Shown here one piece after another: positions 32,886 through 44,223 of a stretch of 64,000 bases of DNA. The notes beneath the pieces were generated by a model. It was not told the origin of the DNA. It did no database searches and saw only the letters and a program-made list of their open reading frames with translations. Source of the stretch: Patescibacteria group bacterium. GTDB taxonomy: Bacteria; Patescibacteriota; Minisyncoccia; Phycocordibacterales; CAIRYW01. Position 1 is the stretch's first letter. The number at the start of each line of letters is the position of its first letter. The DNA lies in NCBI GenBank assembly GCA_040389185.1, contig JAZKAJ010000005.1, positions 19,887 through 83,886 of the forward strand, written 5' to 3'. A program made the translations under genes and the position numbers.

Positions 32886-33314
32886 TTATTTAAGAGTAGA
32901 AAATTGAATTATCCATTCAATACCATACACATCTCTAAACATCCCAGCATATGTACCCCAAGGACTCTCACCTATCGGACCTTCGACTTCCCCTCCGTCT
33001 GATAAACTGTTAAATAATTTATCAGCTTCTTCTTTGCTGTCTGCGTTCACTAAAATTTTACTTCTATTTTCTCTCTCATTTACTTTCCCCATAAATTCTG
33101 GAACATCATTACCTATCAAAAGATTATTCGCACCAATAGGCAAAGCAATATATATAATTTTATTTTCTTCATTTGCTGCAACTTTGAATTCAGCGCTTGC
33201 CAAATCTTTAAAACGTATCACTTTTGTAAATTCTGTCCCGAACACTGATTTATAAAATGTAAATGCATCAAAGGCATTGCCGTTGAAGTTAATCCAAGGA
33301 TTTATTGTTGTCAT
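32886..33314 (-). CDS. VOC-superfamily protein, PhnB/3-demethylubiquinone methyltransferase-like.
   Basis: 142-aa ORF, with N-terminal TINPWINFNGNAFDAFTFYKSVFG and a C-terminal GWTYAGMFRDVYGIEW segment. Confidence 0.7.
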   Translation of the reverse strand: MTTINPWINFNGNAFDAFTFYKSVFGTEFTKVIRFKDLASAEFKVAANEENKIIYIALPIGANNLLIGNDVPEFMGKVNERENRSKILVNADSKEEADKLFNSLSDGGEVEGPIGESPWGTYAGMFRDVYGIEWIIQFSTLK

Positions 33315-34161: not shown

Positions 34162-34593
34162 CTATAAGTTTTTATTCGCTACCTCTTTCTGATAATTCAT
34201 CATCCATTCTACCCCATATTTATCAGTCACCACTCCAAACACCCCACCCCAAAACTGCATTTCTGGTGCCATAAAAACTTCACCGCCCTCTGAAATTTTT
34301 GAGAAAAAATCTTGAAGTTGTTCTTCACTCTCGCAGTTTAAGGACATTCCAACATTGTCTCCAATAATTGCTTTGTCCTGCATCATATCCATACCCACAA
34401 AAGTTACATGTTCACTTTTGAGTATTGAATGCATCAGATTATTTTGCTTATCTTCCGGCATATCTTTTGACATTGGACTATCTTTTACCGTCATTGTTTC
34501 AAGTTCGCCACCAAAAATTCCTTTATAAAAATTCATTCCTTCTGTTCCTTTGTTGTCATTAAAACGTATAAATGGTGTAAGCATAATATTCAC
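34162..34593 (-). CDS. VOC-superfamily protein, PhnB-like paralog.
   Basis: 143-aa ORF with the same architecture as 32886-33314 (NFYKGIFGG...WGGVFGVVTDKYGVEW). Confidence 0.7.
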   Translation of the reverse strand: MNIMLTPFIRFNDNKGTEGMNFYKGIFGGELETMTVKDSPMSKDMPEDKQNNLMHSILKSEHVTFVGMDMMQDKAIIGDNVGMSLNCESEEQLQDFFSKISEGGEVFMAPEMQFWGGVFGVVTDKYGVEWMMNYQKEVANKNL

Positions 34594-35085: not shown

Positions 35086-35431
35086 GTTTGTGGTCTCCTT
35101 TTGTTAGAACTGTTCAAAGTGAACTTATCACGTTTTTGTGATATGTCAATAATATTGTTATGGTTTAATGCTCGGAATCACAAATAAATTAGTGCGGGTT
35201 CTAATTCCAACCAAGGTAACAAAAAATCACCTTGATAAACAAAGTGATTTTTAGTTGCTCCCCGGTAGGGAATCTTTCGTTACACGAACAGTACACCTTT
35301 TGGATAATTTGCTTCTTAAAATCGCAAATTATGCTCAAAAGGTTTTCGATCCCTACACGCAAGTGCCCCGCACTTGCTCGGCTGGAGCACAAAAAGAAAA
35401 AACACCTATTATAGGTGTTTTTTCTTTTTGT

Positions 35432-35775
35432 GCTCCCCCGGTAGGGATCGAACCTACGACCAATCGATTACATTTATCCTAAAATTACTTAAAGGGATGG
35501 ACTATATCATATCCGTATTCTAAATTTCTTTAGAGTTTAGGACCGAGGCGCTTCGTTCCAAATATTATTTAGAACTACTCCGTTAAGGATAGTCTCTGAA
35601 CCTTCTCCGATTTACACCAGAGCTTGGCTGCTGATTGCCCTTTGTATTGCTACAAATAAGGTTTCCAGCAATTCACCTCGTTTTTCAAACTATCATTTCG
35701 ATAGAAAGCTGCAAACAGTATCATTTTTAATGATGACGCTGACAGTCGATTGCTCTACCGCTGAGCTACAGGGGA
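35432..35775 (-). tRNA. Intron-containing tRNA. Exons are 35742-35775 (5') and 35432-35469 (3'). The anticodon is most consistent with GUU (Asn).
   Basis: The exons fold as acceptor TCCCCTG/CGGGGGA, D-arm GCTC-AGCGGTA-GAGC, anticodon stem ATCGA/TCGAT, variable loop TGGTC, T-arm GTAGG-TTCGATC-CCTAC and discriminator G. The loop is CUGU|UAA when spliced at the U.G pair. Confidence 0.75.
35470..35741 (-). ncRNA. Group I self-splicing intron (272 nt) in the tRNA anticodon loop.
   Basis: Canonical core elements are present: P AAUUGCUGGAAAC, Q GCAAUCAGCAGCC, R GGUUCAGAGACUAUCC and S GAUAUGAUAUAGUCCAUCC. The 5' exon ends in U, with a GCAG internal guide that can form P1, and the intron ends in G. 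Confidence 0.8.
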
Positions 35776-36144
35776 ATATTACTCTATCTTTTTGATCATT
35801 ATTTTCATACTGATCAAAATAAATCTGGCAAATAAATTGTCGATTAACAGTCTCGTCACAGATAATTTTCCGCTGAAAATTTCTGCGACCCCACCTCACG
35901 CCATCGCGTTCCGGTCTTGCGGTTGGGTCCCTATCCCAACCTCACTCCACCGCTCTTCTACAGGGGAATACTATGTTTTATCAAACATATCTGATTACTA
36001 ATTATAATAACCAGAATTTGTCTTATAACAACAATTTTTGCTCTACCGCTCCGCTACAGGGGAATACTCGGAACATAGTATCAAAAAAGTAGCTTTTTGC
36101 AAAGGATTAGATAGAACCATATTGCCCTAAGAAAGAAGCCGGGG

Positions 36145-39179: not shown

Positions 39180-39575
39180 ATGAACAAAAATAAAGTTGTG
39201 CATTTTGAGATCGTCGCTATAGACCCACAAAGGGCCATCGAATTTTATACAAAAGTCTTTGGGTGGGAATTCAAGAAATGGGAAGGAGGAGAAATGGATT
39301 ATTGGATGGTTTTAACTGTACCCCAAAACACCCCAGGTGCCATTAATGGAGGACTTCGAAAGGAAATGGAAACAGATATTAAAGAACGTACAAAAAGTGT
39401 GAATGCTTTTGTGAGTATCATAGCCGTCGAATCCATTGATGATATTTTGAAGGGTATAGAAGAAAATGGTGGAGAGATAATGCAGCCAAAAATGAAAATT
39501 GAAAAAATGGGATGGCTCGCGTATTGCTATGATACAGAAGGCAATATGATAGGAATAATGGAACCCGATATGTAA
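39180..39575 (+). CDS. VOC family protein (glyoxalase/bleomycin-resistance fold).
   Basis: 131-aa ORF with VHFEIVAIDPQRAIEFYTKVFGWEF... and a C-terminal GWLAYCYDTEGNMIGIME segment. Confidence 0.7.
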   Translation: MNKNKVVHFEIVAIDPQRAIEFYTKVFGWEFKKWEGGEMDYWMVLTVPQNTPGAINGGLRKEMETDIKERTKSVNAFVSIIAVESIDDILKGIEENGGEIMQPKMKIEKMGWLAYCYDTEGNMIGIMEPDM

Positions 39576-42564: not shown

Positions 42565-44223
42565 ATGACCAAGCGAAATGCTCTTATCTCAGTTTCAGAC
42601 AAAGAAAACATTGTAGAATTTGCCAAAAGATTAATCGCACTCGATTTCAATGTCATAGCCTCAGGAGGAACAGCAAAACTCCTTGAATCAAGCGGAGTCA
42701 GAGTCACAAGCACCGCAGAAGTCATTAATATCTATGCGCGAGACATTCTGAAGAAAAATAATATAAAAATAACTCCAGAAATTGAGCATTCACTAGGTGG
42801 TGCAATCCTTGATCATCGTGTAGTTACCCTTTCACGCGAGATCCATGGCGGAATTCTTGCTCGAAAAGATCACATGGAAGAACTCTCAAAACTAATGATT
42901 CCGTGGATCGACCTTGTTTGCGTTGATTTCTACCCTTTTGAAAAGACAATCGCAAAACCAGGCATCACTATGTATGAAGCGATCGAACAAGATGATGTGG
43001 GGGGACCAACAATGATCCATTCAGCTGCCAAGGGAGCTCAAGAAGGTCGTATAGTTATAAGTGATCCAAAAGATCGTGACATAGTATTAGCACTTCTCGA
43101 ACAAAGTTCAGATCACGATCTCACACAAGAAAAGAAAAACGAACTCGCATCCAAAGCGGATTATATTGTCAGCCGTTATTGTATGATGGTCTCCACATAC
43201 AGAAGCGACAGAAATTTTGTGGGAATGTTCGGAGAAAAAGTCGCAGCATGTAAATACGGCGAGAATGCACACCAGACTCCAGCAGCACTGTATTCAAATG
43301 GAAGTAATGACCCACTTGCTCTCGATCAATTCGTCGTTGTTGAAGGAATGCTTCCAAGTTACAACAATTATTGTGATATTTATCGAATGACTCAGATCGC
43401 AACACATATTGCAGGAGCATTCGATAAAAACACAAAGAAAGTTCCATTTATGGCAATTGGAGTAAAGCACGGCAATCCTTGTGGCACAGCGATTGGCACA
43501 AATCCAAAACAAGTCTTGAAAAAAATGATGTCGGGAGATCCACTTTCAATATTCGGTGGACTCGTCATGACCAACTTCCCCATTGATGAAAAACTTGTGA
43601 GTGAACTTTCTGGCCGCATGCTTGATGGAATCATTGCCCCAGCATTTTCAAATGATGCGATCGAAAAATTGAAAAGAAAGGGTAACAAATGCCGATTTGT
43701 AGTGAACAAAGAACTATCAAAACTCTCAATTAAAAGTATCGACACTGCACCGTACTTTAGATATGTTCGTGGAGGATTCCTTGAACAGCCAAACTATACT
43801 TTTGTTATAGATCTCAAAGCACCTGAAATAAAACAATATGGAAAGATCTCACAGAGCCAAAAGAATGATCTCCTTCTTGCGTGGGCAATTGGATCTACCT
43901 CAAACAGCAACACAATTTCAATTGTTAAAAATGGTCAGCTGATTGGAAACGGTGTAGGTCAGCAGGACCGAGTAGGTGCAGCTAAACTCGCGCTCGAAAG
44001 AGCAAAGAGATCAAAGCACACACTCGCAGGCGCAAGTGCATTTAGCGACTCATTCTTCCCTTTCCCAGATGCACCAGAAGTACTCATAAAAGCCGGTATC
44101 AAAACGATCCTCAGTACAAGCGGTTCAGTGAAAGATGACCTCACGATCACTTTATGCCAGAAAAAAGGAACAGGTCTTATAATGATCCCCGACTCACTTG
44201 GACGAGGTTTTTTTGGGCACTAG
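42565..44223 (+). CDS. purH: Bifunctional AICAR transformylase / IMP cyclohydrolase.
   Basis: 552-aa ORF with an N-terminal MGS-like IMPCH domain (ALISVSDKENIVEFAKRL...ASGGTAK) and a C-terminal AICARFT domain. Confidence 0.88.
   Translation: MTKRNALISVSDKENIVEFAKRLIALDFNVIASGGTAKLLESSGVRVTSTAEVINIYARDILKKNNIKITPEIEHSLGGAILDHRVVTLSREIHGGILARKDHMEELSKLMIPWIDLVCVDFYPFEKTIAKPGITMYEAIEQDDVGGPTMIHSAAKGAQEGRIVISDPKDRDIVLALLEQSSDHDLTQEKKNELASKADYIVSRYCMMVSTYRSDRNFVGMFGEKVAACKYGENAHQTPAALYSNGSNDPLALDQFVVVEGMLPSYNNYCDIYRMTQIATHIAGAFDKNTKKVPFMAIGVKHGNPCGTAIGTNPKQVLKKMMSGDPLSIFGGLVMTNFPIDEKLVSELSGRMLDGIIAPAFSNDAIEKLKRKGNKCRFVVNKELSKLSIKSIDTAPYFRYVRGGFLEQPNYTFVIDLKAPEIKQYGKISQSQKNDLLLAWAIGSTSNSNTISIVKNGQLIGNGVGQQDRVGAAKLALERAKRSKHTLAGASAFSDSFFPFPDAPEVLIKAGIKTILSTSGSVKDDLTITLCQKKGTGLIMIPDSLGRGFFGH

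Follow-up and report, generated by a model that had tools for sequence, protein, structure and literature searches.

A tRNA-Asn(GUU) gene of a Patescibacteria bacterium split within its anticodon by a group I intron of predicted subgroup IA architecture

A minus-strand tRNA gene at positions 35432-35775 of a 64,000-nucleotide stretch of Patescibacteria DNA (contig JAZKAJ010000005.1 of assembly GCA_040389185.1; the whole stretch is referred to here as the window) is interrupted within its anticodon, which raises the questions of which tRNA the gene encodes, what kind of intron divides it, and whether the arrangement has been met before. An earlier note, made from the letters of the sequence, read the locus as a tRNA split by a 272-nt group I intron, at a position and in an isoacceptor outside the bacterial tRNA introns known to its author. 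The structural part of that reading is correct apart from the length, since the intron measures 271 nt (35741..35471), and the premise of novelty is out of date. With high confidence, the locus can be assigned to a tRNA-Asn(GUU) gene of a member of the Patescibacteria (Parcubacteria/Paceibacteria, Taylorbacteria-like) that is split between U35 and U36 by an endonuclease-free, 271-nt group I ribozyme of subgroup IA. The gene and its parts, in window positions, are the following.

35433..35775, minus strand: the interrupted tRNA-Asn(GUU) gene, complete from U1 to discriminator G73, defined from the sequence and with ARAGORN.
35742..35775, minus strand: 5′ exon of 34 nt, with acceptor strand UCCCCUG, D-arm, anticodon stem strand AUCGA and loop residues C32, U33, G34 and U35.
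35471..35741, minus strand: group I intron of 271 nt with subgroup IA architecture and no open reading frame (ORF), defined by the RF00028 match, folding and covariation.
35471..35471, minus strand: omega-G, the final intron nucleotide, a G throughout an 88-sequence alignment and followed there by an invariant UAA.
35433..35470, minus strand: 3′ exon of 38 nt, with U36, A37 and A38, anticodon stem strand UCGAU, variable loop, T-arm, acceptor strand CGGGGGA and G73.

Read on the minus strand from 35775, the letters of the 5′ exon are UCCCCUG-UA-GCUC-AGCGGUA-GAGC-A-AUCGA-CUGU; the intron closes with AUAAAUG, and the 3′ exon, the start of which is UAAUCGAU, continues as UAA-UCGAU-UGGUC-GUAGG-UUCGAUC-CCUAC-CGGGGGA-G. 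When the exons are joined in silico, ARAGORN recognizes a 73-nt tRNA-Asn(GTT) whose cloverleaf is without mismatch and which carries a U1-A72 pair and, at 35433, the discriminator G73 that the earlier note had also named. The spliced anticodon loop CUGU|UAA (CUGUUAA) has 7 nt and holds the anticodon GUU, so that anticodon positions 35 and 36 flank the intron. At no other boundary are a U immediately before the intron, a terminal omega-G and a 7-nt loop all obtained, and the same choice of a U.G wobble and terminal G, made beforehand from the single sequence, is upheld by homologs of the intron (described below): the wobble is found in 88 of 88 aligned sequences, omega-G does not vary, and the exon end CUGU is likewise unvarying (88/88). 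In its default mode ARAGORN misses the gene, its sole call in the window being a tRNA-Glu(CUC) at 2762-2833, and the split tRNA at 35432-35775 is found in intron mode; neither mode detected a second tRNA-Asn within the 64-kb window.

The isotype of the spliced product was also compared with 36 uninterrupted tRNAs of Candidate Phyla Radiation (CPR) loci among the matches listed in the homolog scan described below. The nearest match is the sole tRNA-Asn of that set, with 81% identity; the true tRNA-Thr genes of these loci start with GCCG and are 65-69% identical to the spliced tRNA. A BLAST comparison with E. coli was set aside as uninformative, the organisms being too distant: it returned tRNA-Ile and tRNA-Lys genes of prophages and plasmids at 76-88%.

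The insertion has the properties of a group I intron. With E=1.4e-15 and 69.5 bits, where the gathering score is 50, minus-strand positions 35738..35478 match the Rfam model RF00028 over its entire length (1-253), and the four core elements P (AAUUGCUGG), Q (AAUCAGCAGCC), R (GUUCAGAGACUA) and S (GAUAUAGUCC), which the earlier note had picked out, are all present in the intron. A pattern combining the tRNA D-arm with P7 has one match in the window and none in 100 shuffles. The longest sense-strand ORF lying wholly within the intron has 24 aa, and a 68-aa GTG ORF at 35693..35899, which runs from upstream across the exon into the first 49 nt of the intron, is taken to be a chance ORF; thus no homing endonuclease ORF was found in the intron, as the earlier note had also concluded.

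The sequence and the Rfam alignment were used to draw a structure from P1 to P9 by hand. Its elements, in intron nucleotide (nt) numbering, are listed below; MFE fold refers to the minimum free energy fold of the intron.

35714..35740, minus strand: P1 extension hairpin, nt 2-28, AUCAUU/AAUGAU (MFE fold).
35709..35712, minus strand: internal guide sequence GCAG, nt 30-33, which makes P1 by pairing with exon C32-U35; the U35.G30 wobble lies at the 5′ splice site.
35690..35704, minus strand: P2 hairpin CUAUC-GAAAU-GAUAG, nt 38-52 (MFE fold).
35674..35680, minus strand: P3 5′ strand CGAGGUG, nt 62-68, pairing with 35544-35550.
35629..35670, minus strand: P4-P5-P5a domain, nt 72-113, with a GCAA tetraloop at L5a and holding the P and Q elements (Rfam match and MFE fold).
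35601..35627, minus strand: P6-P6a hairpin, nt 115-141 (MFE fold).
35590..35596, minus strand: P7 5′ strand GAGACUA, nt 146-152, with A147 bulged, the R element, pairing with 35499-35504.
35579..35589, minus strand: P7.1 hairpin UCC-UUAAC-GGA, nt 153-163 (MFE fold).
35555..35575, minus strand: P7.2 hairpin of 9 bp, nt 167-187 (MFE fold).
35544..35550, minus strand: P3 3′ strand CGCCUCG, nt 192-198 (covariation).
35511..35543, minus strand: P8 hairpin, nt 199-231, with a GAAA loop (local fold of the segment).
35499..35504, minus strand: P7 3′ strand, nt 238-243, the UAUAGUC core of the S element (invariant columns).
35478..35495, minus strand: P9 hairpin, nt 247-264, with a GUAA tetraloop at L9 (covariation).

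P7 is the guanosine-binding helix of group I introns, and the presence of P7.1 and P7.2 between the 5′ strand of P7 and the 3′ strand of P3 is the hallmark of subgroup IA; by the P7.1/P7.2 architecture predicted for it, the window intron is of IA type. Folded without constraint, the intron reaches -67.2 kcal/mol (z-score -2.88), and this fold reproduces P2, P3, P4, P5/P5a, P6/P6a, P7.1 and P7.2 of the hand-drawn structure.

Homologs were sought by scanning species-representative genomes with a pattern made up of a tRNA D-arm, 135-165 nt and then GTTCAGAGACTA. At least 119 loci matched; what is said of the individual loci, here and below, applies to the matches listed. These are almost all from Patescibacteria, distributed over Saccharimonadia, Paceibacteria, Magasanikbacteria, Doudnabacteria, Collierbacteria and others. 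Nearly all have exons of the form UCC...GGA-G in which CUGU precedes the intron and G|UAA marks its end, the arrangement of a tRNA-Asn interrupted at 35/36, and a few fall in tRNA-Asp(GUC) at 35/36, tRNA-Phe or tRNAs with a CAU anticodon. The nearest relatives of the window intron are ∼74% identical to it. A total of 87 distinct homologous tRNA-Asn loci with the exon ends CUGU | ...G | UAA were aligned with the window intron using MAFFT, and the resulting 88 sequences served for the covariation analysis.

The alignment supports the structure strongly. Over the named helices 90.8% of cells are paired, compared with 79.2% in shuffles, none of 500 of which reached the real value; double-sided changes number 587, the shuffles having 212, and pairing falls to 31-42% when the 3′ partners are displaced by 1-3 columns. 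Compensatory changes occur in P3, P4, P5, P7.1 and P9, and P6 and P7 are without variation. The P1 pairs (C-G, U-A, G-C and the U.G wobble) are present in all 88 sequences, and the pair adjoining P1, in which the first intron nucleotide faces the base lying 5′ of the guide G, shows covariation (GC 24, AU 20, UA 8, CG 5); the P1 extension differs in length among homologs. P3 is 98.5% paired with two-sided changes at four of its seven pairs, pairing in P4 reaches 98% and its U-A/G-C/A-U changes are compensatory, and covariation is seen in P5 too. The P6 pairs are invariant and its distal part forms a hairpin in 87/88; all six P7 pairs are invariant (88/88). Two hairpins separate P7 from the 3′ strand of P3 in 70 of the 88, and P7.1 is 95.8% paired with compensatory changes at each of its three pairs (e.g., UCUC/GAGA and UUCC/GGAA). 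P9 is 89.6% paired with two-sided changes at six of seven pairs. For P2, sequences folded one by one give a single hairpin in 88/88, with a GNRA tetraloop in 78; on the MAFFT alignment P2 is 39% paired, because the 5-nt loop of the window intron shifts the register. The P8 segment forms a single hairpin in 85/88, although the MFE fold of the full intron pairs the region 3′ of P3 otherwise. Conservation among homologs reaches at least 90% at 94 columns, and the window intron deviates at none of them.

Introns of this type have been described. Nakagawa, Amikura, Omae and Suzuki (mSystems 2026, PMC13011429; bioRxiv 10.1101/2025.07.03.662931, July 2025) reported tRNA-Asn(GUU) as well as tRNA-Asp(GUC) introns at 35/36 and found those in tRNA-Asn(GUU) to be the characteristic tRNA intron of the Patescibacteria, in which they are enriched, with 15 tRNA-Asn cases in 95 complete genomes. 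With subgroup covariance models, 25 of the 28 introns located at 35/36 were assigned to IA, and subgroup IC, which makes up 81% of bacterial tRNA introns, accounts for none of those in Patescibacteria (PMC13011429). The introns mostly lack endonuclease genes and average 257 nt. Transcripts from GCA_016700035.1 (Asn) and GCA_001029755.1 (Asp) self-splice in vitro and the ligated tRNAs were sequenced, and a mutant with the terminal G changed to C halts after the first splicing step (PMC13011429). According to the same authors the type was first listed, as ‘Asn.4Ug’, in the tFind preprint (Williams 2020, 10.1101/2020.01.27.920355), which puts the increase in known classes at from 4 to 21. The window intron is collinear with the Paceibacteria tRNA-Asn intron of GCA_016699245.1 and with the Saccharimonadia intron of GCA_016700035.1 that was spliced in vitro; a three-way alignment with these sequences, taken from Table S3 of PMC13011429, has a mean column identity of 76% with the core elements all in register. 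The isoacceptor and position that the earlier note did not recognize thus belong to a class with in vitro splicing and sequenced junctions. The window intron has in common with that class the phylum, the tRNA, the anticodon, the site after U35, the terminal G, the IA-type P7.1/P7.2, the size class, the lack of an endonuclease gene and even the ARAGORN miscall as tRNA-Thr, and it differs in its own sequence (∼74% to the nearest of the matches), a GAAAU loop at L2 and two U × U mismatches in P9. In kind it does not differ from that class.

Comparison with more familiar introns places the window intron further. The classical bacterial tRNA introns interrupt tRNA-Leu(UAA) at 34/35 (cyanobacterial and plastid), tRNA-fMet at 33/34, and Agrobacterium tRNA-Arg(CCU) and Azoarcus tRNA-Ile(CAU) at 36/37. 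They and the window intron are alike in being anticodon-loop group I ribozymes with P1 formed from loop bases, a U before the site and a terminal G, and the classical introns too are mostly without an endonuclease; they belong, however, to subgroup IC (IC3), lack P7.1/P7.2 and occupy other positions and isoacceptors, whereas the window intron lies at 35/36 and has both hairpins. Classical IC3 membership was accordingly rejected. Phage and organellar IA introns, such as those of T4 td and nrdB, have P7.1/P7.2 between P7 and P3′ and conserved R and S elements, and the window intron resembles them in P7.1/P7.2 and in its R (GUUCAGAGACUA) and S (GAUAUAGUCC) sequences. They reside in protein-coding or rRNA genes, often with an endonuclease ORF, whereas the window intron is in a tRNA anticodon and free of ORFs.

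For the window locus, guanosine-dependent self-splicing and the exact junction are predicted by homology, because the published in vitro splicing and junctions come from one Saccharimonadia tRNA-Asn intron and one Patescibacteria tRNA-Asp intron at the same site. The gene would be transcribed as a single precursor, probably ending at an inverted repeat that starts in the last 4 nt of the tRNA, and the intron would fold into a P1-P9 core with P7.1/P7.2. Residues C32-U35 would pair with the internal guide GCAG to give P1, with the U35.G wobble at the splice site, and a free guanosine held in P7 would attack the phosphodiester after U35. Omega-G (35471) would then take the place of the guanosine in the P7 site, and the 3′-OH of U35 would attack the bond after omega-G, joining CUGU to UAA and restoring the 7-nt loop CUGUUAA. 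A CCA-adding enzyme would complete the 3′ end. In addition, U27-U28-G26 can be drawn pairing alternatively with A37, A38 and U39 of the 3′ exon as a weak P10.

Several points weigh against this reading. The homologs on which the predicted splicing and junction depend are only ∼70-75% identical to the window intron, and the predicted P10 has 3 pairs only. A C × U mismatch stands beside the splice-site wobble, a place where 19 of the aligned sequences, the window included, are unpaired. The L2 loop is a GAAAU pentaloop that is unique in the 88-sequence set, in which 78 have a GNRA loop that presumably makes a tertiary contact, and the P9 stem contains two U × U mismatches. The three deviations in the intron itself are peripheral, and the window intron is probably, as judged from its sequence, a functional member of the published class.

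The alternative that homing or reverse splicing brought the intron in recently as a mobile element, so that it would not be an old vertical resident, is highly improbable and concerns history only, the nature of the element being the same in either case. Some Patescibacteria tRNA-Asn introns at 35/36 do contain HNH endonuclease genes (PMC13011429), and the identical site is occupied across very distant CPR classes, both of which are in keeping with mobility. The window intron has no ORF, however, horizontal transfer of such introns is infrequent according to PMC13011429, and even the nearest of the 87 homologs is only ∼74% identical, so that there is no sign of recent transfer.

It is similarly hard to credit that the intron is decaying and deficient in splicing, the locus being a tRNA pseudogene and translation being served by a separate, intact tRNA-Asn. 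The unique L2 pentaloop, the P9 mismatches and the C × U beside the splice site could be read as decay, and a Logan contig holding the same sequence is broken within the 5′ exon, which could mean that an exon-sharing sequence is present in the sample. Against this, the highly conserved columns are intact (94 of 94), P1, P3, P4, P6 and P7 have no flaw, no mismatch disturbs the tRNA cloverleaf, and the window yielded no second tRNA-Asn. The contig break is equally explained by metagenome strains with a common exon and without the intron, for which another locus (L010), identical over 38 nt and then divergent, provides an example.

A tRNA-Thr(GGU) with the intron one nt further 5′ (CUG | U...U | GUAA), which is what ARAGORN -i calls in the region and in the whole window alike (tRNA-Thr(ggt), 271-nt intron at 33/34) and which also gives a 7-nt loop (CUGGUAA), has next to no probability, since it breaks both group I rules in that the 5′ splice site would follow a G and the intron would close with a U, where the U.G wobble and terminal G are invariant in 88/88, the tRNA body with U1-A72 and G73 is closest to a real tRNA-Asn (81%) and not to real tRNA-Thr (65-69%), and comparable ARAGORN/tFind miscalls, to Thr(UGU) by a two-base shift, were disproved by sequenced spliced products (PMC13011429).

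Two further candidates were set aside. Bulge-helix-bulge tRNA introns of archaea and eukaryotes are short, usually at 37/38, and cut by a splicing endonuclease; the 271-nt length, the 35/36 site and the match to the group I model speak against such a protein-spliced intron, for which no explicit bulge-helix-bulge search was made. A phage origin is not supported: no phage record matched the 12 kb surrounding the locus in a megablast search, and a pattern scan of viral contigs gave 0 matches.

The 3′ end of the gene lies next to one more feature.

35384..35436: perfect inverted repeat of 26 nt with 1 nt between its arms, beginning in the last 4 nt of the tRNA (G70-G73).

Its two arms show 100% complementarity, with an A-tract and a U-tract around CACCUAU/AUAGGUG, and the repeat is a probable intrinsic transcription terminator for the tRNA, possibly a bidirectional one; a simple terminator scan downstream of the tRNA-Asn gene flagged nothing. 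G73 at 35433 is followed by CAC, so that CCA is not encoded, and 3′ trimming and CCA addition are required.

The host is identified by the lysyl-tRNA synthetase encoded in the window, which is 100% identical to ‘MAG: lysine--tRNA ligase [Patescibacteria group bacterium]’ at NCBI (MAG, metagenome-assembled genome) and 96% identical to that of Candidatus Taylorbacteria; the remaining named top matches are from Parcubacteria, Paceibacteria or Minisyncoccia, all of them CPR, which places the host within the CPR. The genes nearby are of ordinary bacterial kinds, encoding a DUF347 membrane protein, an AstE/AspA-like protein, glyoxalase-fold proteins, lysyl- and prolyl-tRNA synthetases, PBP2, PriA and PurH. 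Three paralogs of the glyoxalase/bleomycin-resistance fold lie within 7 kb of the tRNA (32886-33314, 34162-34593 and 39180-39575) and a full-length purH is found at 42565-44223, rather many accessory and biosynthetic genes for a member of the Patescibacteria. The only other assembly with the DUF347 neighbour (L001, a contig of Logan SRR26324622) ends in the 5′ exon at window position 35748, 6 nt short of the exon-intron boundary; this end is likely to be a branch in the assembly graph caused by related strains with a common exon but not the intron. In L010, 38 identical nt at the 5′ exon are followed by divergence.

Variation among the homologs was also observed. In two Ca. Collierbacteria tRNA-Asn introns (L006 and L092) the gap between P7 and P3′ is only 2 nt and P7.1/P7.2 are absent, and some 15 Saccharimonadia loci (L005, L017, L036 and others) have a single hairpin there, the loop of which is a conserved GAGCCYAACAAUAAU; the defining element of subgroup IA thus differs in structure from one part of the class to another. 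Insertions of ∼150 nt between P7.2 and P3′ (L102:165-578) and of ∼80 nt inside P7.2 (L076:860-1221) also occur. A Ca. Saccharimonadales MAG (L037:5914-6270) has Asn-type exons and the CUGU end, with ...AAGCA before UAA and no G at the omega position; the copy may be inactive, its 3′ splice site may have shifted, or the assembly may be in error. Ten MAGs labelled ‘uncultured Gammaproteobacteria’ (L018, L034, L043, L052, L058, L082, L084, L099, L101 and L104) contain tRNA-Asn introns grouping alongside Magasanikbacteria introns and those from other CPR lineages; either these MAGs are mislabelled or the class occurs beyond the Patescibacteria more often than reported. Introns in other tRNAs include those in tRNA-Asp(GUC) at 35/36 (L032 and L067), in tRNA-Phe(GAA) (L023), in a CAU tRNA of a Chloroflexota MAG (L031), and in a CAU-anticodon tRNA of a Bacteroidales MAG (L074:5212-5640), which lies beside an intact tRNA-Arg(CCU) at a locus that also has an uninterrupted tRNA-Asn.

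The window intron is a routine member of a known, experimentally validated class, in a phylum where such introns are common; it adds one example and opens no new question. The scan, with at least 119 species-level genomes, suggests a class far exceeding in size the 15 tRNA-Asn cases published from 95 complete genomes. Whether the intron is more than a tolerated passenger, acting as a guanosine-dependent valve on the supply of the sole tRNA-Asn or as a copy dependent on a host chaperone, is a very doubtful proposition. If the gene were the only tRNA-Asn of a reduced genome, splicing would couple tRNA-Asn supply to the guanine-nucleotide pool or to growth state, a coupling that Nakagawa et al. 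(PMC13011429) raised as speculation; alternatively, the odd L2 pentaloop and the mismatched P9 may make the window intron need a host protein chaperone. The more immediate value is for annotation. Finders of tRNA genes miss the gene (ARAGORN default) or call it tRNA-Thr (intron mode), so that manual annotation is needed; with the gene missed or mislabelled, the genome would seem to be without a tRNA-Asn and be scored as less complete. Recognition of the intron restores to this organism an essential tRNA-Asn gene.

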